A stretch of 39,731 nucleotides of DNA from a virus (taxonomy: Duplodnaviria; Heunggongvirae; Uroviricota; Caudoviricetes): positions 1 through 39,731 of the IMG/VR virus record IMGVR_UViG_2718218171_000002, one strand, 5' to 3'. The translations under genes were made by a program, and so were the position numbers. Below, piece after piece: positions 17,400 to 39,731 of the stretch (position 1 is the first letter of the stretch; each line of letters starts with the position of its first letter). Under the pieces are notes generated by a model. The model did no database searches. It saw only the letters and a program-made list of their open reading frames with translations, and was not told the DNA's origin.

Positions 17400-17897
17400 A
17401 TGAAATCATTAACCCTCTTCAATCAACCAATTCGTATCGGTGAAGATGGCATGATCTGCCTCACTGATATGTGGAAAGCCAGTGGTAAAAGTGAATCTGA
17501 ATCGCCTTACCACTACCTGCGAAACAAGCAGACCAAAGAGTTCTTAGCCGAGTTGGAGAAAAACCACGAATCTGTGGTTTTTACTGAGCGCGGTGTACAC
17601 GGTGGAACATATGGCGGGAAGTTTGTTGCTTACGATTATGCGGCTTGGTTAAACCCCGGGTTCAAGTACGCGGCCTATAAAGTCCTCGATGACTACTTCA
17701 CCGGAGAACTTCAGCATCGCAACAGCTTAAGTGCGCAGCTCAACATGAAATGTCATGAGTTTGACCAGAAGAAAGACATGGCGAGCTTCTGCGGACAAGG
17801 GCTGGCAGCATGGCGCTATACGAAGCCAGTGTTGGTCGCTGAGATTAACTCCCTGGCTAACCAGCTGCAGATTACGATACCCGGGCTTCCGGGATGA
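17400..17897 (+). CDS. KilA-N domain protein
   Basis: 165 aa with N-terminal KilA-N-like region; accessory position between lysis and terminase. Confidence 0.55.
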   Translation: MKSLTLFNQPIRIGEDGMICLTDMWKASGKSESESPYHYLRNKQTKEFLAELEKNHESVVFTERGVHGGTYGGKFVAYDYAAWLNPGFKYAAYKVLDDYFTGELQHRNSLSAQLNMKCHEFDQKKDMASFCGQGLAAWRYTKPVLVAEINSLANQLQITIPGLPG

Positions 17898-30570: not shown

Positions 30571-32046
30571 ATGGCTACGTGGCAACAGGGTATTAATTCT
30601 GGTGGGTTTCTTGCTGGCATCGGTGCGCAAAATGAGAATGCGCCAAAGGCAAGCGACATTAACGCAACGCTTGGTCTGATCCGCGAAAACAATGAACTGG
30701 CTCGCTCAGGTGCAAATAACGTTGGTCTGACCGCGTTACGTGGTCTGGCTGGAGTTGCTGATATTTATAAGCAGGAACAGCAACAGAAAGCGATTAATGC
30801 GTTCAATAAGGTTCATGCTGATGCATGGGCTTCTGGTGATCCATCGGGACTATTTAAGTTTGCCCAGGAAAATCCAGCGTTTGTTGCACAGGCACAACAG
30901 GCATTTTCCGGTCTTAATGAGCAGCAACGCAACGATATGGGCGATTTAGCCATGAGGGCTAACGTCGCTCTTTCTCAGGGACCGGAAGCCTACAGTAAAT
31001 TCATTACTGATAACAAGGACAGGTTAAATCGCGTGGGGGCGAATGCTGACTGGATGATTCAGACAGGTATTCAGAATCCAGAGCAGCTATCACACATGCT
31101 GACTACTATGTCTCTCGGTGCACTTGGGCCAGAAAAGGCGTTTGCTGTTCAGGACAAGATAGCTGGTCGTGAGATTGACCGAGGCAGACTGGCAGAGACA
31201 ATCCGCAGCAATCAGGCCAGCGAAGCACTTCAGGCGAGAGGGCAGGATATTAGCCGAGCAAATGCGTTAACGTCAGCATATGCACCAACAGCCGCAATGC
31301 AGAATTACAATCAGTACGCGCAAATGTTAAAGGCGGATCCAGATGGTGCAGCGGCATTTGCGGCAGCGGCGGGAATTAATCCCAATGCTAAGAAATTACT
31401 TAAGGTTGAAACCAATCCTGATGGATCGGTAACTAAGTATTACACCGATGGCAGCGAGGAAGCAGGAAAACTAAACCAACCTATATCTGGTGATGGCATT
31501 AAACCAATTAGTTTGCCACAAGCGCAAAGCATCATAGATAAGGCTAATGAGGGTTCCAAGAAGGCGGCAGGATTTGCTTTGCGATTAAAAGATTCAATGG
31601 ACTCAATGAATCAGCTTAGTAAAAGCATTGACCCTAAGCGAGTTGCATTAATAAATCGCTCTCTTGGTGATGGGACTATTGCAAATTTAAGCCTATCACC
31701 AGCGGAGCAGCAATATATGGTAAATGCGAGAGACGCCTTGTATGCAATTTTGCGCCCAGAAACAGGTGCAGCAATTACTCTGCCAGAGATGCAGGAGTAT
31801 TCCAAAATGTACCTGCCTCAGCCCGGTGATTCCAAGGCTGCTACTGAAACAAAAATGCGAAAAATGCAGGGCCAATATAACTCATTACGTGGTCAGTCTG
31901 GTCGCGTTTATGATGCTTTGGTGGTTTCAAGTGCTGCAAATAGTCAACAACAGAGCAATAGCCAACAACCGACAAATACCCAACAGCAGCAGAGTCAATC
32001 CGGATCATATACCTCAAAATCAGGCATTCAATTTACGGTGGAATGA
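30571..32046 (+). CDS. 20: ejection protein (P22 gp20-like)
   Basis: 491 aa; gene order. Confidence 0.7.
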
Positions 32047-34172
32047 TGAAAGTAACTGCAAACGGTAAGACATTTACCTTCCCTGATGGTACGAGCACGG
32101 AAGATATTGGCACCGCCATTGATGAGTATTTTGCTGGTCAGGCTGTTCAGCAACAAACAGTTAATCAGGCCAATAATGAACCAGCACGTGAAGAACCATC
32201 ATTGATGCAACAAGCTGGCGATTGGCTCACAGGTGGTCAAAGTGCAGGGCAAATTGCAGAGCAGGCTGGTCGTGGTCTGGTAAACATACCATTTGACGTA
32301 TTGCAGGGTGGCGCAAGTCTGATTAATGCAATCAGCCAGGGGCTTGGTGGCCCCAAGGTTTTGGATGATGTTTATCGCCCTGTCGATCGACCGACAGACC
32401 CTTACGCGCAAGCCGGTGAAACAATTGGTGGGTATCTCCTGCCAATTGGCACAGCGGCAAAAGCTGCTGGAGCGCCAGCAAAGCTCGCTGGAGATATCGG
32501 TTCCGCAGGAAACATGATTGCAGGTTCTCTTGCTGATGCTGCAAATCAGGAGGGCGACTTTGCACAAAATGCTGCCATTAACGGTGGTATCAATATTGGT
32601 GCTCAAGGCGTTCTTTCAGGTGTCGGGCGCGTTATTGCGCCAAGGGTTTCACAGGCTCTTGGTGGTGCAGCACTGAATTCTGCTAATGATGTTTCCAGGA
32701 TGGCAAAGTCAGGTGCTGGGCGTCAGTCAATTGCCAGTCAGGCCGCTAATGTGTCCGAAGATGTAGCAAAAGCAGCTGAGTCTGCTGGAATTGATATAAA
32801 CGCATTAACACCAGGAATGCGATCTGGAAGTCGTGGAATTGCACAAGCCGAAGGCGCATTGGCATCAACACCAGGAATTGTTCAGGACGCCCATCAGGCA
32901 GCATTTAACGAAATATCATCAAAGTTAAGTCGAAACCTTGATGAATTTGGGGCCGCATCTGGAACGGCATCAGAAAAAAGTGCGGCTATAAAACAAAGGA
33001 TCCTTCAAAATCTTGATCAGATGAAGGATGCCGAGCGCGAGGCATGGGATGACGTGCGGTCAACAATGCCAAATCAAAAAGCAAGAATGCTAAATGGTAA
33101 TGCCGTTATTCAGGCAGAGCGATCTGCTGGCATACCGCTTACTCCTGAAATGAAACAGTTTGTTCAGGCAAACAATCAAGGTGGAGTAACATTTGATGGC
33201 ATGAAAGCATGGAGAGCGAAATTTGCTGATGCGGAGCAAAAATATAAGCGTAGCGGAGAGGCAAATGCGGCAAGGAGAGCAGGGGAAATACGCCGGGCAA
33301 TTACTGATGATATGCGCACAATGGCGGAAAACGGCGGATTTCTTGATGACTGGCAGAAAGCTAATGATCTGTCTAAAGCGAGGTTATCAGCACAAGAGGG
33401 TGCAGAGTCTGTTTTCGGGCGTGATTTGGCAACAGATGCACTGATTACGAATGGAGTAAAATCCCTTCAATCATCTTCAGCTAAAGGTCTTAATGGTCCT
33501 GCTGGATTCCATTCTATGATCCGCGCTCTGCCGGTATCAGAGCGTGTTCCTGCTATATCATCAATGCTGCAAGATGCTATCTCGCATGGTGTCCGTGGTG
33601 GCAAATCTGATGCAGCAGGAATTAACCATATTGCAGAGATACTCACGCCACAAAATGTAAAAGCCATTAGCCGATATTCCTCAGAGCTTGGAAGAATTGC
33701 TGATGCATATGGCACTCTTGCAAGAGCAGCTGTGAAACCTCAGCAGCATATTGAAAGAACAGGGAGAACTGCCAATGTACTACGCGATCTTGATGCTGGT
33801 TTATCCAACGTTACATCAACAGTGTTAAATGCAATTGCCAACTCAACATCAGGTGCCATTGTTGGTGGAGCAGGAGGCGGGGGCGTTGCTGGCGCTGCCG
33901 CAGGTGCTTTAATTGGCGCTGGGTTAAAAGGCGCTGTATCTAAAATTGCCACCACACGTAGTGGTCGGTATGCGATAGAGAAAGCAGTTCAGGAAGCAAC
34001 TAAAGCAGTAAGAGCAGGCGGAAGCAAAGAAGCATTAGTGGCGGCTGAACGCAGATTTATGGCAAATAAAGCTGCCGTAAAAGCAATACGTGACACAGTC
34101 GGAAACGAAGAGTTCAATCGCTTAGCGAGGGCTGGCATTGTAGCGTCGCTAAGCGGAATAGCACAGGAGTAA
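32043..34172 (+). CDS. 16: ejection protein (P22 gp16-like)
   Basis: 709 aa; Gly/Ala-rich segments; gene order; ATGA coupling. Confidence 0.7.
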
Positions 34173-34496
34173 TTAATCATCCATGGATGGATTGAGCTTA
34201 TCTCGTGTTGATGTGGCGATTTGTCCTACATTTCTAAGCCAAGATTTCAAATCCTTGATATTGTCATTGATTTCATGAATATCTTCTTTTTTTAATCTGT
34301 TAACATTATTTTCAATAATTTCAATGGATTGCTCAATATCAGATATAGTGAATGATAGTTTGTTCTTCTCATCTTTTATTGAGTTTTTAAGTGCTTCGTT
34401 CTCAGTCTTGAGGTCAGATATCTTTTGTTTTAAAGATGCCAGTTGGTACTGAACCACAATGAGTGCGATAGCTATCACGATAACTGTTGTATACAC
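34173..34496 (-). CDS. single-pass membrane coiled-coil protein (107 aa), function unknown
   Basis: GTG start after AAGGAGG RBS; N-terminal TM helix TTVIVIAIALIVVQY; strongly AT-rich; stop abuts gene 16 stop. Confidence 0.5.
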   Translation of the reverse strand: MYTTVIVIAIALIVVQYQLASLKQKISDLKTENEALKNSIKDEKNKLSFTISDIEQSIEIIENNVNRLKKEDIHEINDNIKDLKSWLRNVGQIATSTRDKLNPSMDD

Positions 34497-34613
34497 ACCA
34501 ACCTCCTTAGTTTTGAGCAGGATACCATGAAAAAAGTAAACATCTTTTGCCTACTTCACATTTGAATGTTTTGTCATTAGGATGTTTCCGGTTTTTTAAA
34601 TATGGAAATTGAT

Positions 34614-35033
34614 ATGAAGAGGATTATCGGCGTCGTTGCTGGCGCTATATTGTTATCTGGGTGCGCAACTATTGTTGGTGACGAAACACAGCTTGTGCAA
34701 GTGAACAGCAATCCTTCCGGTGCGATCTTTAAGGTAAAAGACGAATCAGGCGTGATTGTTGCGCAAGGTAAGACCCCGCAAGGAGTAACTCTTGCCAAGT
34801 CGGATGGTAGTTATTTTGGCAAAAAGAGCTACCAGATCACTATGGAGAAGGATGGGTACGAACCAGTTACCCTGCCAATCAAAGCCAATGCTAATGGTTG
34901 GTATATTGGTGGGAACCTTGTGTTTGGTGGGTTAATTGGTTGGCTTGCTGTAGATCCATTTAATGGTGGGATGTATACCTTGAAGCCAAAAGAGGCAAAC
35001 GCATCTCTTATACCATCAACAAAGCAAGACTAA
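34614..35033 (+). CDS. predicted lipoprotein with PEGA-like domain (alternative start 34602)
   Basis: Signal peptide with lipobox LLSGC; PSGA..GKTP motif; Gly-rich hydrophobic C-terminal segment. Confidence 0.55.
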   Translation: MKRIIGVVAGAILLSGCATIVGDETQLVQVNSNPSGAIFKVKDESGVIVAQGKTPQGVTLAKSDGSYFGKKSYQITMEKDGYEPVTLPIKANANGWYIGGNLVFGGLIGWLAVDPFNGGMYTLKPKEANASLIPSTKQD

Positions 35034-35041
35034 TAAATAGG

Positions 35042-35066
35042 ACCCACCTTCAGGTGGGTTTTTTGT
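35042..35066. terminator. bidirectional intrinsic terminator between lipoprotein gene and mnt
   Basis: Stem ACCCACC/GGTGGGT with TTCA loop followed by TTTTTTG; mnt stop codon lies within the hairpin. Confidence 0.6.
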
Positions 35067-35301
35067 ACAAATCCTTCAGCGTATCAAACACCATCTTCTT
35101 AACAAGCTCTGATTGCTCATCAGCGATGCGTTCCGCATCGTCTCGATAGCCTGAAATTTTGGATGGCCTTGATACAGCATCAGTCACTATCTGAACTAAT
35201 TCTGAATTAAGAGAGCGGCCATTGGATTTGGCTCGCTGTTTTAGTTTTTCCTTTAATTCGTAAGGTAGCCGCAGATTAAATTGCGGGTCATCTCTTCCCA
35301 T
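35050..35301 (-). CDS. mnt: Mnt repressor (ribbon-helix-helix, P22 immI)
   Basis: 83 aa, matches P22 Mnt as remembered, including C-terminal ERIADEQSELVKKMVFDTLKDLYKK. Confidence 0.85.
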   Translation of the reverse strand: MGRDDPQFNLRLPYELKEKLKQRAKSNGRSLNSELVQIVTDAVSRPSKISGYRDDAERIADEQSELVKKMVFDTLKDLYKKPT

Positions 35302-35365
35302 TCTTGATGCCTCGCTCTTGTGAGTGGATCGGCATCTTATTATCTGCTGGTTGCATCCTCAATAA

Positions 35366-35378
35366 GACCACGGTGGTC
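35366..35378. promoter_or_regulatory. putative Mnt operator (palindrome GACCACGGTGGTC)
   Basis: Perfect 13-bp palindrome containing the CCACGGTGG core remembered for the P22 mnt operator; sits between mnt and the tailspike gene. Confidence 0.55.
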
Positions 35379-35436
35379 GTATTTTTTGATTAATAATGAA
35401 TCACTGCGGCCATTCCTTGTATCTGGAGCAAATTAA

Positions 35437-37854
35437 ATGACAGACATTACAGCCAATGTTGTAGTGAGCATGCCTTCGCAACTCTTTACTATGGCCCGCT
35501 CTTTTAAAGCCGTAGCTAATGGCAAAATTTATATCGGTAAAATTGACACTGACCCAGTAAATCCAGAAAACCAGATTCAGGTTTATGTGGAGAACGAAGA
35601 CGGCTCTCACGTTCCTGTTTCTCAACCAATCATCATTAACGCTGCTGGTTATCCGGTATATAACGGACAGATTGCCAAGTTTGTAACTGTGCAAGGCCAT
35701 TCTATGGCTGTTTATGATGCGTATGGTGCGCAGCAGTTCTATTTTCCTAATGTGCTGAAGTATGACCCTGATCAGTTACGTCAGCAATTAGAAGACCCAT
35801 ATGGTGCGGAAAAATACCCTGAATTACAAATAGCCAGATGGATAGATGATGGAGATGTAAGGGGGTGGGGGTTAAAACCAGGCTATTATTTTGATAATAG
35901 TTCTGTATGGGAAAATCTGTTAAATTCTGGACGCAAAGATTTTGTTGTGCCTTCTGGTGTTTTCAGATTTTCTAACGGAATTGATATACCAGGAGACTTT
36001 AGATTTATAGGGCAGGGCTCTCCTATTCTTGGTTTTGGCACAGATGATGATAAGCATTTTTTGTCTGAAGGAATTAAGCAAAACATGCCGGGTTCATCAT
36101 TTATATTTTCTGGAAAAGGGACAAGAGAAGCCACGGCGTACAATCGCAATGACCAATTTTCAAGCGTAAGGTATTGTGTGCGAGTTATGTCACCAGAGTA
36201 TGGTTCTAGTGGAGCCGTATTACGTGGTATTGCAATAATTCAGGACATGGTCTGCTTTGATGGTGATGGTATTCCAACAACCCCTAATAATGATATGCGT
36301 TCAGATTATGAGTGTGGTGTTTATTACGACGACTCTGCAAGAAATCTTCAGGAGGATGTTTGTGTATTCGGATACTTTTCAAAAGCAGGTACAATAATTC
36401 AGTCAAAGCAAGGAAACGATGACCCTGATTACAATACCATTACTGGTGGGTCAACTATGGGGAGAGTCGGTTTAGCAATTCTTGGTTCAAACACTGGGCC
36501 TGCAAGTTATGGTCTCAGCGGAACTAGAGTAGATAAATGTGGTATTTATACCCTTGATCACCACAGTCGTGCATCAATGTCTCATGAAGAGCTTGTTTCT
36601 TATTACTCTAGCGCAAACACATGGCGATGCCTTTATATAGATGGTGATGTTAATGCGACATCCGCTGAAATAAATGGGCATTACTTTTATGGCTGTGAGT
36701 TTAGAACCAGAGCTAATCATGCATTAGAATTTGATCACGCATCCAACATCCAGTTTTATGGTGGCGTGGTAGAGCAATCCCCTTATGGTATTACAAATTC
36801 AGATATTCCGACTTTTATTGGTTCTGAGAATGTAAAGAGAGGCGTTGGTTTTTATGGCGTGCGCATGAATTATATTTCTCAGATATTTAATGACAATTTT
36901 GCTGGAGTGATTCCTGTAAAAATAATAGTTTCAGGCGATCCGCTAAACGGTAGATTTGGAGTTGTAGGTAAAGACCCAGCAGGCGGTTATACCGTTGCAA
37001 TTCTTGGCTCTGATGGGAATATTGGTGACGCATCAATTCAGTTTACGAAGAATGCTGCTGATGGGTCTACAGGATGGAAAGTGATGATGGATGCAAGCTC
37101 CGACAGACTATTGGTCAGCAAGGATGGAGAAACCATGACGTCACTCACTGAGACAGGAATGTACACTGTATCGGCTCCATCTGGTTCTGATGCTATTCTT
37201 GGCCTGCTCAGTAATGGCAACGCTACATCTTGGTTCATGAGAACACAATACAACAGTGTAGGTCAATTACAGTTCAGACATGGTGGGTCTGGAGCTACTC
37301 CAGCAATGCAAATAGCAACGTCAGGAGGAATAACTCCTGGAACTGATGCCACTTCAAATATAGGTAGCGCATCACTACGATATAACATTGGTTATTTTGC
37401 CGGAGGAACCCAGTCAAGCTCTGATGCAAGACTGAAGGATCCGATAAGAGAAATGACAGATTCTGAAAAGTCAGCAGCTAAAGAAATAGGAGAAATGATT
37501 GGGTTTTGGACATGGATTGATGATGACTCAAAGCGTTTGCATGCAGGAATAACAGTTCAATCAGTTATATCTGTATTAGAAAAACATGGATTAAATTGGA
37601 GGAATTATTCATTTATAGGTTTTGATGAATGGGATGACATATATGATGATGTAGTTAAAGACATCGAAGTTGAAGATGCGAATGGTAATAAAAAAATAAT
37701 ATCGGTTAATTCTGGAGAGAAAAAGCTTGTAAAAAAAGCAGGGAATCTTTTTCAATTTAGAGACCAAGAATTAGACAGATTTATAATGAGAGGGTTATCA
37801 GAAAGGATATCTGATATTGAAGATTTATTGATTAAAAAAGTTATTAAACAATAA
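35437..37854 (+). CDS. 9: tailspike protein: P22 gp9-type head-binding domain, beta-helix-type receptor-binding region, C-terminal intramolecular chaperone (S74-like) domain
   Basis: N-terminal ~115 aa matches P22 gp9; SDARLK self-cleavage-type motif about 144 aa from the C-terminus; 3' ~440 bp strongly AT-rich. Confidence 0.85.
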
Positions 37855-38558
37855 TACAACAACAAAGCTTTGCACTGGATTGCAAGGCTTTGTGCTCTTC
37901 GATAGTGGTTAAGGTTGATCACACCACCTTTTCATCAATCCAATCCGCCCACCACTGCATCATTTCTCTGCGCTTAACGTAGCGGATGCCTCACTATCAC
38001 ACGGTGATGGTTCGTTACTGGTTTGCAGAATGGATAGAGAACTGAGGATAAAAAGATATCCCAAAACTCTAAAATCTCATCTTTAGGATTTGCAGACAGG
38101 TAGGCATGAACAGATACCTACGCATGAAGATGGAACTAGTCCGGATGCGATATTTTTGGTGATCACGTACATCATCAACGAAGAGCGTTATGGTGAGTTT
38201 TATGACTGCCCGGTGATGTGAAAATTGCGATGTGTACCAAATTGTGTACCAAACTAAAATCATAAACCATGAAACCCTTACTCATGGCTGTTCTCAGGTG
38301 GGGTGCGTGTAATCGTGAAACAAAAAGGTAGATTGTTGCTTACCGTCATTCATCATTAGGTTAAATCCGTTGTTTCTGCTGTCTGCCAGAGTATCAAATA
38401 TCACCGTGCTAATCAGCTTTAGCGCAACAATTTGACAGCGAGTGGCAACAGATCATGTCAGATAAAAATGCGAGGGTAGTCACATTTTCTTGCACTTTAT
38501 TCCAGCCAGTTCATAAGTATTTCCGTAAAAAGAACAGCTATTTGAAACTCCTGAGGGT

Positions 38559-39731
38559 TTGCTGTTGAAACGCCGTCTTATTATTGCTGCTTCTTTGTTC
38601 GTTTTTAACTTATCGTCTGGTTTTGCGGCGGAAAACATTCCTTTTTCACCTCAGCCTCCAGAGATTCATGCCGGCTCCTGGGTATTGATGGATTACACCA
38701 CCGGTCAGATCCTCACCGCGGGTAATGAGCATCAACAGCGCAATCCCGCCAGCCTGACAAAGCTGATGACGGGCTATGTCGTGGATCGCGCTATCGATAG
38801 TCATCGCATTACGCCAGACGATATTGTCACCGTGGGGCGCGATGCGTGGGCGAAAGATAATCCAGTGTTTGTCGGTTCTTCACTGATGTTTTTGAAAGAG
38901 GGCGATCGCGTATCGGTACGTGATTTAAGCCGTGGTTTAATTGTGGATTCCGGAAATGATGCTTGTGTTGCTCTGGCTGACTATATTGCCGGTGGGCAAC
39001 GGCAGTTTGTTGAAATGATGAACAACTATGCCGAGAAGCTGCATCTCAAGGATACGCATTTTGAAACAGTGCATGGTCTGGATGCACCAGGCCAGCATAG
39101 CTCGGCTTATGATTTAGCTGTGCTTTCTCGCGCTATCATCCACGGCGAGCCCGAGTTTTATCATATGTACAGTGAGAAAAGTCTCACCTGGAACGGTATC
39201 ACCCAGCAAAACCGTAACGGGTTATTGTGGGATAAAACCATGAATGTTGACGGCCTGAAAACGGGTCATACTTCTGGTGCCGGGTTTAATCTCATTGCTT
39301 CGGCTGTAGATGGGCAGCGTCGTCTCATTGCAGTGGTAATGGGGGCTGACAGTGCAAAAGGTCGTGAGGAAGAGGCAAGAAAATTACTGCGTTGGGGGCA
39401 ACAAAACTTTACTACGGTGCAAATTTTGCATCGTGGGAAAAAGGTCGGTACGGAACGCATCTGGTATGGCGATAAAGAAAATATCGCCCTGGGAACGGAA
39501 CAAGAGTTCTGGATGGTGCTACCGAAAGCCGAAATTCCACATATCAAAGCCAAATATACCCTTGATGGTAAAGAGCTCACTGCGCCAATTAGCGCCCATC
39601 AGCGGGTAGGGGAAATTGAACTTTACGACCGTGATAAACAGGTGGCGCACTGGCCGCTGGTTACCCTGGAATCTGTCGGGGAAGGCAGCATGTTTTCCCG
39701 CCTGAGTGATTATTTCCACCATAAGGCTTGA
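38559..39731 (+). CDS. dacD: D-alanyl-D-alanine carboxypeptidase, DacD-like (host gene)
   Basis: 390 aa; penicillin-binding motifs SLTK, SGN, KTG; TTG start; stop codon is the last three bases of the window. Confidence 0.85.
   Translation: MLLKRRLIIAASLFVFNLSSGFAAENIPFSPQPPEIHAGSWVLMDYTTGQILTAGNEHQQRNPASLTKLMTGYVVDRAIDSHRITPDDIVTVGRDAWAKDNPVFVGSSLMFLKEGDRVSVRDLSRGLIVDSGNDACVALADYIAGGQRQFVEMMNNYAEKLHLKDTHFETVHGLDAPGQHSSAYDLAVLSRAIIHGEPEFYHMYSEKSLTWNGITQQNRNGLLWDKTMNVDGLKTGHTSGAGFNLIASAVDGQRRLIAVVMGADSAKGREEEARKLLRWGQQNFTTVQILHRGKKVGTERIWYGDKENIALGTEQEFWMVLPKAEIPHIKAKYTLDGKELTAPISAHQRVGEIELYDRDKQVAHWPLVTLESVGEGSMFSRLSDYFHHKA

Follow-up and report, generated by a model that had tools for sequence, protein, structure and literature searches.

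Repression of Pant-ant is the established role of Mnt in a P22 lysogen, and the question raised by the locus described here is why an Mnt that is selected and expressed has been retained, along with its operator, by many P22-like phages that have lost the antirepressor. The window, meaning the whole 39,731-nucleotide stretch of IMG/VR virus record IMGVR_UViG_2718218171_000002 that was analysed, is an almost whole P22-like (Lederbergvirus) prophage of E. coli. The early and regulatory genes encoded in the window include those for RecT/Ead, a C2-type repressor, CII, NinB/NinG and the Q antiterminator, while the ORFs between approximately 19 and 34 kb are read, from their sizes and order, as putative lysis, terminase, portal, coat and injection protein genes. 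The right prophage end adjoins E. coli dacD (98-99% identity). The mnt gene follows the injection-protein genes within the late operon and is divergent from the tailspike gene (Pfam domains Head_binding and Peptidase_S74), with no gene between the two and a spacer of 135 bp separating them (Table 1).

Table 1. Features of the interval between the injection-protein and tailspike genes, in window coordinates.
Feature	Position	Strand	Remarks
gp16-like injection-protein gene	32043-34172		
107-aa ORF	34173-34496	-	
Promoter-like site of the lipoprotein-like gene	34555..34583		
Lipoprotein-like moron gene	34602..35033	+	Homologue of epsilon34 gene 15 and GALLYPH_14
Bidirectional intrinsic terminator	35039..35065		Between the lipoprotein-like gene and the mnt 3' end
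mnt	35050..35301	-	ORF, 83 aa
Conserved inverted repeat/hairpin	35306..35336	+	GATGCC..GGCATC with inner stem; overlaps the Pmnt -10 and start region
mnt Shine-Dalgarno, GAGG	35310..35313	-	8 nt before the ATG; read from the sequence
Decayed Pant remnant	35329..35357	+	TCGGCA (35329..35334), 17 nt, TGCATC (35352..35357); aligned to P22 TTGACA-17-TATATT
Predicted Pmnt homologue	35334..35362	-	-35 TTGAGG (35357..35362), 17-nt spacer, -10 TAAGAT (35334..35339)
Predicted Mnt operator	35364..35380		17-bp equivalent of P22 Omnt, by homologous position and flank
Tailspike leader	35379..35436	+	Shine-Dalgarno GGAG at 35425..35428
Tailspike gene	35437..37854	+	P22-type head-binding domain, receptor-binding part, S74 intramolecular chaperone domain

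The mnt homologue recognised in a first-pass annotation of this DNA is borne out by a full-length ORF, the product of which shares 74.7% identity with P22 Mnt across all 83 residues. It carries an N-terminal RHH domain (Pfam Arc PF03869, E 1.1e-21, residues 3-50) and a C-terminal coiled-coil tetramerisation domain (Pfam Repressor_Mnt PF11423, E 1.4e-18, residues 53-80), and matches the PDB entries 1MNT (E 7e-34) and 1QEY (28/31 residues identical). The description of this protein as near-canonical holds for the C-terminal tetramerisation half, which is nearly identical to that of P22 Mnt, but is overstated for the DNA-binding N-terminus (MGRDDPQFNLRLPY versus MARDDPHFNFRMPM in P22), where residue 6 is Gln rather than His. 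The base-contacting residues of P22 Mnt are Arg2, His6, Asn8 and Arg10 (Sauer-laboratory literature). Arg2, Asn8 and Arg10 are kept in the window protein and His6 is replaced by Gln, leaving the P22-type set incomplete; the protein is a member of the Mnt family, but one that appears to belong to a specificity class other than that of P22.

This N-terminal domain is found fused to at least four different C-terminal domains among Mnt proteins. Phage epsilon34 is 95% identical to the window as far as the middle of mnt and divergent thereafter, indicating that the N-terminal domain, the operator and Pmnt are inherited as one unit. Between the E. coli-type and Salmonella-type orphan mnt genes dS is approximately 0.55 and dN approximately 0.04, with a dN/dS of 0.06-0.10 (~0.07). 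The gene is under strong purifying selection, and is probably functional rather than a relic.

The palindrome which had been placed beside mnt and the tailspike gene comprises a 6-1-6 core, GACCACGGTGGTC (GACCAC-G-GTGGTC) at 35366..35378, its distance to the mnt ATG being 64 nt and that to the tailspike ATG (35437) 58 nt, and extends to 11-nt arms (AATAAGACCAC/GTGGTCGTATT). The core has a single exact match in the window, where 0/100 shuffles give one. A search of the whole window for a second operator, with up to two mismatches allowed, found none, a uniqueness which at two mismatches is not significant by itself (expected 0.71). The palindrome is significant because its position is homologous to that of P22 Omnt and because it is conserved. 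The P22 mnt-arc spacer reads TTGACA-N17-TATATT-CTCAATAGGTCCACGGTGGACCT and the corresponding window sequence TCGGCA-N17-TGCATC-CTCAATAAGACCACGGTGGTCGT; this alignment puts the palindrome at the homologous place, and the flank CTCAATA- is common to the window operator and P22 Omnt. The two operators show two differences per half-site (AAGACCAC in the window versus AGGTCCAC in P22).

Conservation was assessed in a comparison set made up of 80 IMG/VR loci selected by the protein, a further 80 selected by the operator pattern and the named phages, from which the loci with an adjacent tailspike gene were pooled (128 loci, 36 distinct spacers). The operator arms are nearly invariant across these spacers, while the central base may be A, C, G or T and several unrelated right flanks occur; in a few loci the operator is altered at a single base or Mnt at Pro13. 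The half-site also covaries with the protein. His6 Mnt is paired with a GTCCAC half-site in 6/7 cases (P22, epsilon34 and Pluralibacter and Pectobacterium prophages), and Gln6 Mnt-like proteins with xACCAC/xATCAC-type half-sites (GACCAC, AACCAC, GATCAC or similar) in 92/93 cases, the two classes never being crossed. Relatives from Pseudomonas and Stenotrophomonas that carry three tandem operators also belong to the Gln6 set, while a third class, represented by Sf101 and VSe13 (..AQFHLRLP..), has GTACC-N5-GGTAT at the same position. A search of genome contigs with one peptide pattern gave 25 loci from Pseudomonas and other taxa and 0 from E. coli or Salmonella. The initial proposal that the palindrome is an Mnt operator is strengthened by its occurrence at the Omnt position, by the conserved arms around a free centre and by the covariation with Mnt residue 6. 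It is most probably a true Mnt operator, homologous to Omnt and matching the Gln6 specificity class of the Mnt encoded beside it. The covariation of Gln6/His6 with A/T at one half-site position would mean that a repressor long used as a model has switched its specificity in nature.

The absence of arc and ant, likewise noted at the outset, is upheld. In tblastn searches with P22 Arc and Ant, mnt itself was the only match in the window, and the same result was obtained with the Arc and Ant proteins of Kapi1, phi330, a viral contig with a complete Gln6-type immI (L118) and a CUS-3-like contig, as well as with other ORFs of the arc/ant regions. A relocated antirepressor was also considered and rejected: Ant queries from six sources had no match in the window, and when 20 ORFs were scanned against Pfam the sole candidate, at 17400-17897, was a KilA-N/ORF11CD3 protein with no operator near it. 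The position of Oarc holds unrelated sequence, and the right part of the tailspike leader aligns with the P22 gene 9 leader (..GCTGCGGCAATTCCTTGCATCTGGAGCAAATTAAATG), placing the probable joint left by the loss of arc-sar-ant on the right side of the operator, no more than approximately 12 nt away. The interval is a stripped-down immI, or "ant moron", consisting of mnt, its own promoter and one operator, after the loss of Pant, arc, sar and ant.

Promoter-like sites were scored by a position-weight sigma-70 scan, for which the background has a median of 7.3 and a 90th percentile of 9.9, and for which the P22 controls Pant (TTGACA-17-TATATT) and Pmnt (TTGAGA-17-TATCAT) score 16.6 and 14.3, respectively. 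The sole above-background site in 35280-35460 is the leftward Pmnt homologue, which matches the consensus at 8/12 positions and scores 10.8 (35362 to 35334); a separate promoter scan reported no promoter in the spacer at all. The predicted mnt start falls near 35327, which would centre the operator near -45. The gap between the Pmnt -35 and the 17-bp operator is 1 bp, as in P22, and the ST160 counterpart (TTGTGG-17-TATGAT) occurs at the same place. With the operator 1 bp upstream of the predicted, conserved -35, Mnt may plausibly act in cis on the promoter of mnt, and to this extent the autoregulation by Mnt that was first proposed can be retained. The hairpin overlapping the -10 and start region folds with -16.2 kcal/mol (z -4.4, + strand) and is itself conserved: over 9 variants, pairing is kept in 95% of cells and 2 pairs are compensatory.

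Rightward, the hexamers of Pant have changed from TTGACA to TCGGCA and from TATATT to TGCATC between P22 and the window. No rightward promoter was found in the spacer by either the promoter scan or the position-weight scan, the best rightward score in 35280-35460 being 6.2, which is less than the median of the background. An intact TTGACA promoter is confined to relatives keeping arc-ant, and since those arc/ant keepers with a GACCAC operator retain TTGACA, the loss of Pant accompanies the loss of ant. Pant having decayed, there is no recognisable rightward promoter left for Mnt to gate. On the other side of mnt, the terminator shared with the lipoprotein-like gene is detected on the - strand by the terminator scan and folds with -14.2 kcal/mol on the + strand, where it is followed by U6, and with -12.0 kcal/mol on the - strand; a terminator is annotated at the homologous place in epsilon34.

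Expression of a closely related locus is documented for the prophage Gally of E. coli LF82, for which RNA-seq under five conditions has been published (Misson et al. 2023, PMC9928086; data set GSE154648). The Gally mnt RNA rises from a log2(fpkm+5) of approximately 3.7 in LB stationary phase to approximately 9.0 under macrophage conditions, a reported 40-fold change, and the tailspike RNA from 3.9 to 7.8, while the adjacent late injection-protein gene stays at background (~3.6-4.1) and the lipoprotein-like moron is highly expressed in the lysogen, reaching up to approximately 11 on the same scale (PMC9928086). In the one assay reported, deletion of mnt (for which a strain, MAC2774, exists) left bacterial survival in macrophages unchanged (PMC9928086). 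The mnt RNA values indicate that the gene is expressed and regulated in lysogens. Some late-operon-independent transcription enters the Gally tailspike gene, and rises with mnt rather than inversely to it. The level of this tailspike RNA is hard to explain by terminator read-through alone, which would leave room for an unrecognised rightward promoter near the operator.

The locus is probably best understood as a functional, self-contained mnt-operator-Pmnt cassette with a cis role at its own promoter. The Mnt tetramer would occupy the operator centred near -45 of Pmnt, and the mnt promoter would be its only cis target. In P22, RNA polymerase is present at Pmnt together with Mnt at Omnt, and the P22-equal geometry of the window, together with the 40-fold range of mnt RNA in Gally, suggests a neutral or positive effect on Pmnt rather than tight negative autoregulation. 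The tailspike gene would be served by Q-antiterminated late transcription crossing the operator, with some read-through from the upstream moron also feeding it across the operator, and not by a Mnt-gated promoter. The selective value of Mnt would most likely lie in a trans activity, the leading, speculative candidate being that it represses Pant-ant in incoming phages whose operator is the same and which would otherwise induce the prophage. If Mnt is without effect on Pmnt, the conservation of the operator in cis is unexplained, and its strong conservation could then point to the blocking of something rightward that the sigma-70 model misses.

The trans activity may also be taken as the whole reason for retention, a form of "orphan immunity" in which Mnt is kept only to repress foreign Pant-ant, thereby shielding the C2 repressor, and the cis operator is autoregulatory only. 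This is compatible with the cassette reading and, when scored as the main selected function, it is possible, if doubtful. It fits the role of Mnt in the P22 lysogen and the strong selection on mnt though no cis target gene remains, as well as the conservation of a DNA-binding domain onto which at least four C-terminal domains have been swapped, and suitable targets exist in the form of six to seven viral contigs in which an identical operator (CAATAAGACCACGGTGGTC) is combined with arc, a P22-type ant, a Mnt of the Gln6 type and a TTGACA promoter that is intact. Near matches to such Gln6-type ant modules are, however, absent from 5426 complete E. coli genomes and 50,697 phage records, and the examined E. 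coli ant modules use other recognition types (Stx-type phi330 and the CUS-3-like contig). It is rather unlikely that the cassette is a stand-alone, environment-responsive "anti-antirepressor" immunity gene, turned on in the lysogen (40-fold in macrophages in Gally), directed against Ant of incoming phages of the same Gln6/GACCAC class and retained in many P22-like phages after the loss of ant, or alternatively a means of tuning the tailspike through a promoter that the sigma-70 model misses.

The first-pass annotation had further suggested that operator-bound Mnt gates rightward transcription into the tailspike gene in the lysogen, as a promoter repressor or as a roadblock. All mnt-only phages do have the operator upstream of their tailspike ATG, a conservation which needs a reason, and the homologous P22 site blocks a rightward promoter; in Gally, the independence of tailspike RNA from the late operon implies that some rightward transcription enters in lysogens. 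An effect of Mnt and Arc on late transcription and read-through into the tailspike gene 9 has also been speculated upon earlier (Villafane et al. 2008, PMC2629481). The proposal is nevertheless improbable and, as far as a repressed promoter is concerned, finds nothing in the spacer to act upon, for a rightward promoter could not be detected and decay of the Pant hexamers is seen throughout the mnt-only lineages. Moreover, a simple gate would predict the reverse of the concerted rise of mnt (3.7 to 9.0) and tailspike (3.9 to 7.8) RNA in Gally. Small RHH tetramers are, in general, poor roadblocks for an elongating, Q-modified polymerase. That mnt and the palindrome are merely non-functional, decaying leftovers of a deleted immI, an idea raised for phage L, would accord with the lack of an arc or ant to control, the decay of Pant, the mnt deletion without phenotype in Gally and the few loci with operator or Pro13 changes. 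It is very improbable in view of the selection data (dN/dS 0.06-0.10 at dS ~0.55), the intact ORF in 128 loci, the conservation of the operator arms while the centre and flanks vary, the covariation of operator and residue 6 across genera, the retained promoter, and the transcription and regulation of the gene in Gally. Scarcely any weight is given to the palindrome and its T-run (GACCACGGTGGTC GTATTTTTTG) being an intrinsic terminator or attenuator that stops rightward transcripts before the tailspike gene rather than a protein site. The terminator scan flagged it, and a T-rich tract follows the palindrome in the E. coli-type variants, but the hairpin has only 5 bp (-6.3 kcal/mol, z = -1.4), the Salmonella-type loci keep the palindrome without the T-run and the half-site covaries with a protein residue; it was rejected as a terminator on the weak hairpin and the missing T-run.

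The mnt-only arrangement is also present in L/ST64T, SE1, ST160, Gally, vB_EcoP-720R6, Sf101 and VSe13, and the recurrent layouts of L/ST64T, SE1/ST160, Gally, Sf101 and VSe13 each carry their own matched operator. All IMG/VR loci with Mnt at least 90% identical to that of the window (64/64) are without arc and ant, and these 64 have the tailspike head-binding domain beside mnt and the operator AAGACCAC-N-GTGGTC; an identical layout occurs in three of the loci examined (L001, L002 and L084). Among 5426 complete E. coli genomes, 111 contain the module of mnt and operator, a single one of them at 100% identity. The region has been described as a variable "ant moron", of which ST64T, ST104 and Para1 hold only mnt and a gene whose function is unknown (Villafane et al. 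2008, PMC2629481), and phage L is without ant, arc and sieA and keeps an mnt homologue, for which either another, acquired function or a remnant was considered possible (PMC8022706). The mnt-only arrangement is therefore already known and published, and is not new. The arrangement in the window is an ordinary finding, a recurrent variant of the hypervariable interval between the injection-protein and tailspike genes in P22-like phages. What is newly added here comprises the pairing of the Gln6 class with its half-site, the purifying selection, the conservation pattern of arms and centre, the Pmnt geometry and the decay of Pant. These comparative data narrow the question of Mnt retention: the protein is probably functional and of a distinct specificity class, its DNA-binding domain, operator and promoter form one recombination unit, and the rightward promoter is gone.

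Among the known systems compared, one is the immI region of P22 and epsilon34 (mnt - Pmnt/Pant with Oarc and Omnt - arc - sar - ant), with which the window shares a homologous mnt (75% amino acid identity), the operator position and its flank CTCAATA-, the Pmnt spacing and the site between the injection-protein and tailspike genes. It differs from P22 in being without arc, sar, ant, Oarc and a working Pant, and in its specificity (His6/GTCCAC in P22 versus Gln6/GACCAC in the window). Given this predicted difference in immunity specificity, the window Mnt should not cross-react with P22. Complete immI modules of the Gln6 type are found in uncultivated viral contigs (L118, L123, L162, L089, L148, L163 and L154), the operator and flank of which (CAATAAGACCACGGTGGTC) are identical to those of the window. 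These modules share the Gln6-type Mnt N-terminus, but have kept a P22-type ant, an arc-like gene and, reading rightward, a strong TTGACA promoter; the C-terminal parts of their Mnt proteins bear no relation to that of the window, and they are not beside a P22-type tailspike gene. Neither the 5426 E. coli genomes nor the 50,697 phage records contain a near match to them.

The mnt-only phages share the layout of the window. Phages L, ST64T, ST104 and Para1 have, like the window, a lone mnt divergent from the tailspike gene and neither arc nor ant. Phage L shares with the window the N-terminal domain of Mnt (MGRDDPQFNLRLPYELKEK..) and the operator (AAGACCAC-C-GTGGTCT), and differs in its C-terminal domain (69% overall identity) and in the flanking morons, which are orf62 in L versus hkcB-like and lipoprotein-like genes in the window. 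A near-identical prophage is Gally of E. coli LF82 (OV696608), which has a 98.8% identical Mnt, the same order of lipoprotein-like gene, mnt and tailspike gene, and the operator of the window but with A as its central base. Gally is integrated beside torT, whereas the window prophage abuts dacD, and the operator-tailspike spacer of the window is 11 nt shorter than that of Gally. The receptor-binding parts of the tailspike differ between the window and the group formed by Gally, vB_EcoP-720R6, SE1 and ST160. In SE1 and ST160 the Mnt proteins are 89-90% identical to that of the window, and the layout of the locus is the same.

The window and epsilon34 share 95% identity from 34500 to 35148, a stretch that spans the lipoprotein-like gene and the half of mnt encoding the C-terminus, and diverge beyond it. 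From this alignment, the point where identity ends marks a recombination joint within mnt, and the DNA-binding domain, the operator and the predicted leftward mnt promoter Pmnt are therefore swapped together as a single specificity cassette. The conserved hairpin between mnt and the tailspike gene (see table below) would lie ~100 nt 5' of the tailspike ATG in any rightward transcript. As + strand RNA it folds at -16.2 kcal/mol (z -4.4), and across nine variants 95% of cells are paired, with two compensatory pairs and an invariant U.G pair which is workable on the + strand only.

Additional features of the window
Feature	Position	Strand	Remarks
ORF with KilA-N and ORF11CD3 domains	17400-17897	+	Between lysis and terminase genes
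Lipoprotein-like moron gene	34602-35033		Promoter-like site at 34555-34583
Inverted repeat/hairpin GATGCC-TCGCTC-TTGT-GAGTGG-ATC-GGCATC	35306-35336		Conserved; overlaps predicted Pmnt -10 and start site

G+C content is 33-45% at the prophage's right end (34200-38600), which comprises the morons, mnt, the tailspike gene and att-proximal DNA, whereas the late genes next to it have about 47-52%. No Pfam match was obtained for the lipoprotein-like moron gene. Its homologue in Gally, the prophage of E. coli LF82, is GALLYPH_14, which is expressed far above the other genes at that end of Gally (log2(fpkm+5) up to 11). The five right-end genes of Gally that are homologous to those of this region are induced together in macrophages. 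It may be speculated that this co-induction and the low G+C content would fit relieved silencing of AT-rich DNA. In eight related IMG/VR loci (L027, L039, L050-L053, L062 and L063) the usual tailspike ORF ends after about 16 codons and is followed by an AT-rich insert of roughly 280 bp, past which the tailspike begins again from a new N-terminal sequence (MNRRLFFK...MPNITPNVV...). L035 has an IS1-like insertion at the tailspike 5' end instead.

Short ORFs with Ant-like similarity or an antirepressor annotation occur in some of the mnt-only Salmonella loci (L138, L150, L158, L168 and phage VSe13), on the injection-gene side of mnt and thus not next to the operator. Such an ORF is missing from the window, and no Mnt operator is present in the vicinity of its KilA-N/ORF11CD3 ORF. 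In the CUS-3-like E. coli prophages (L068-L072), ant is present and an 87-aa second RHH gene precedes a His6-type Mnt in the same orientation. The whole L068 contig, the sole CUS-3-like contig examined, contains no GTCCAC palindrome, and its control region carries other repeats (ATGCGTACC); judging by these sequences, the operator of the P22-type Mnt appears to have been lost in this lineage. Gln6 Mnt-like repressors (MSREDPQFKLRMP..) are also encoded in Pseudomonas, Stutzerimonas, Stenotrophomonas and other taxa (L183-L204), with an Ant-like neighbour in L188 only. Their genes adjoin three tandem GGACCAC-N-GTGGTCC-type operators, which bracket a TTGACA promoter directed toward a divergent gene.
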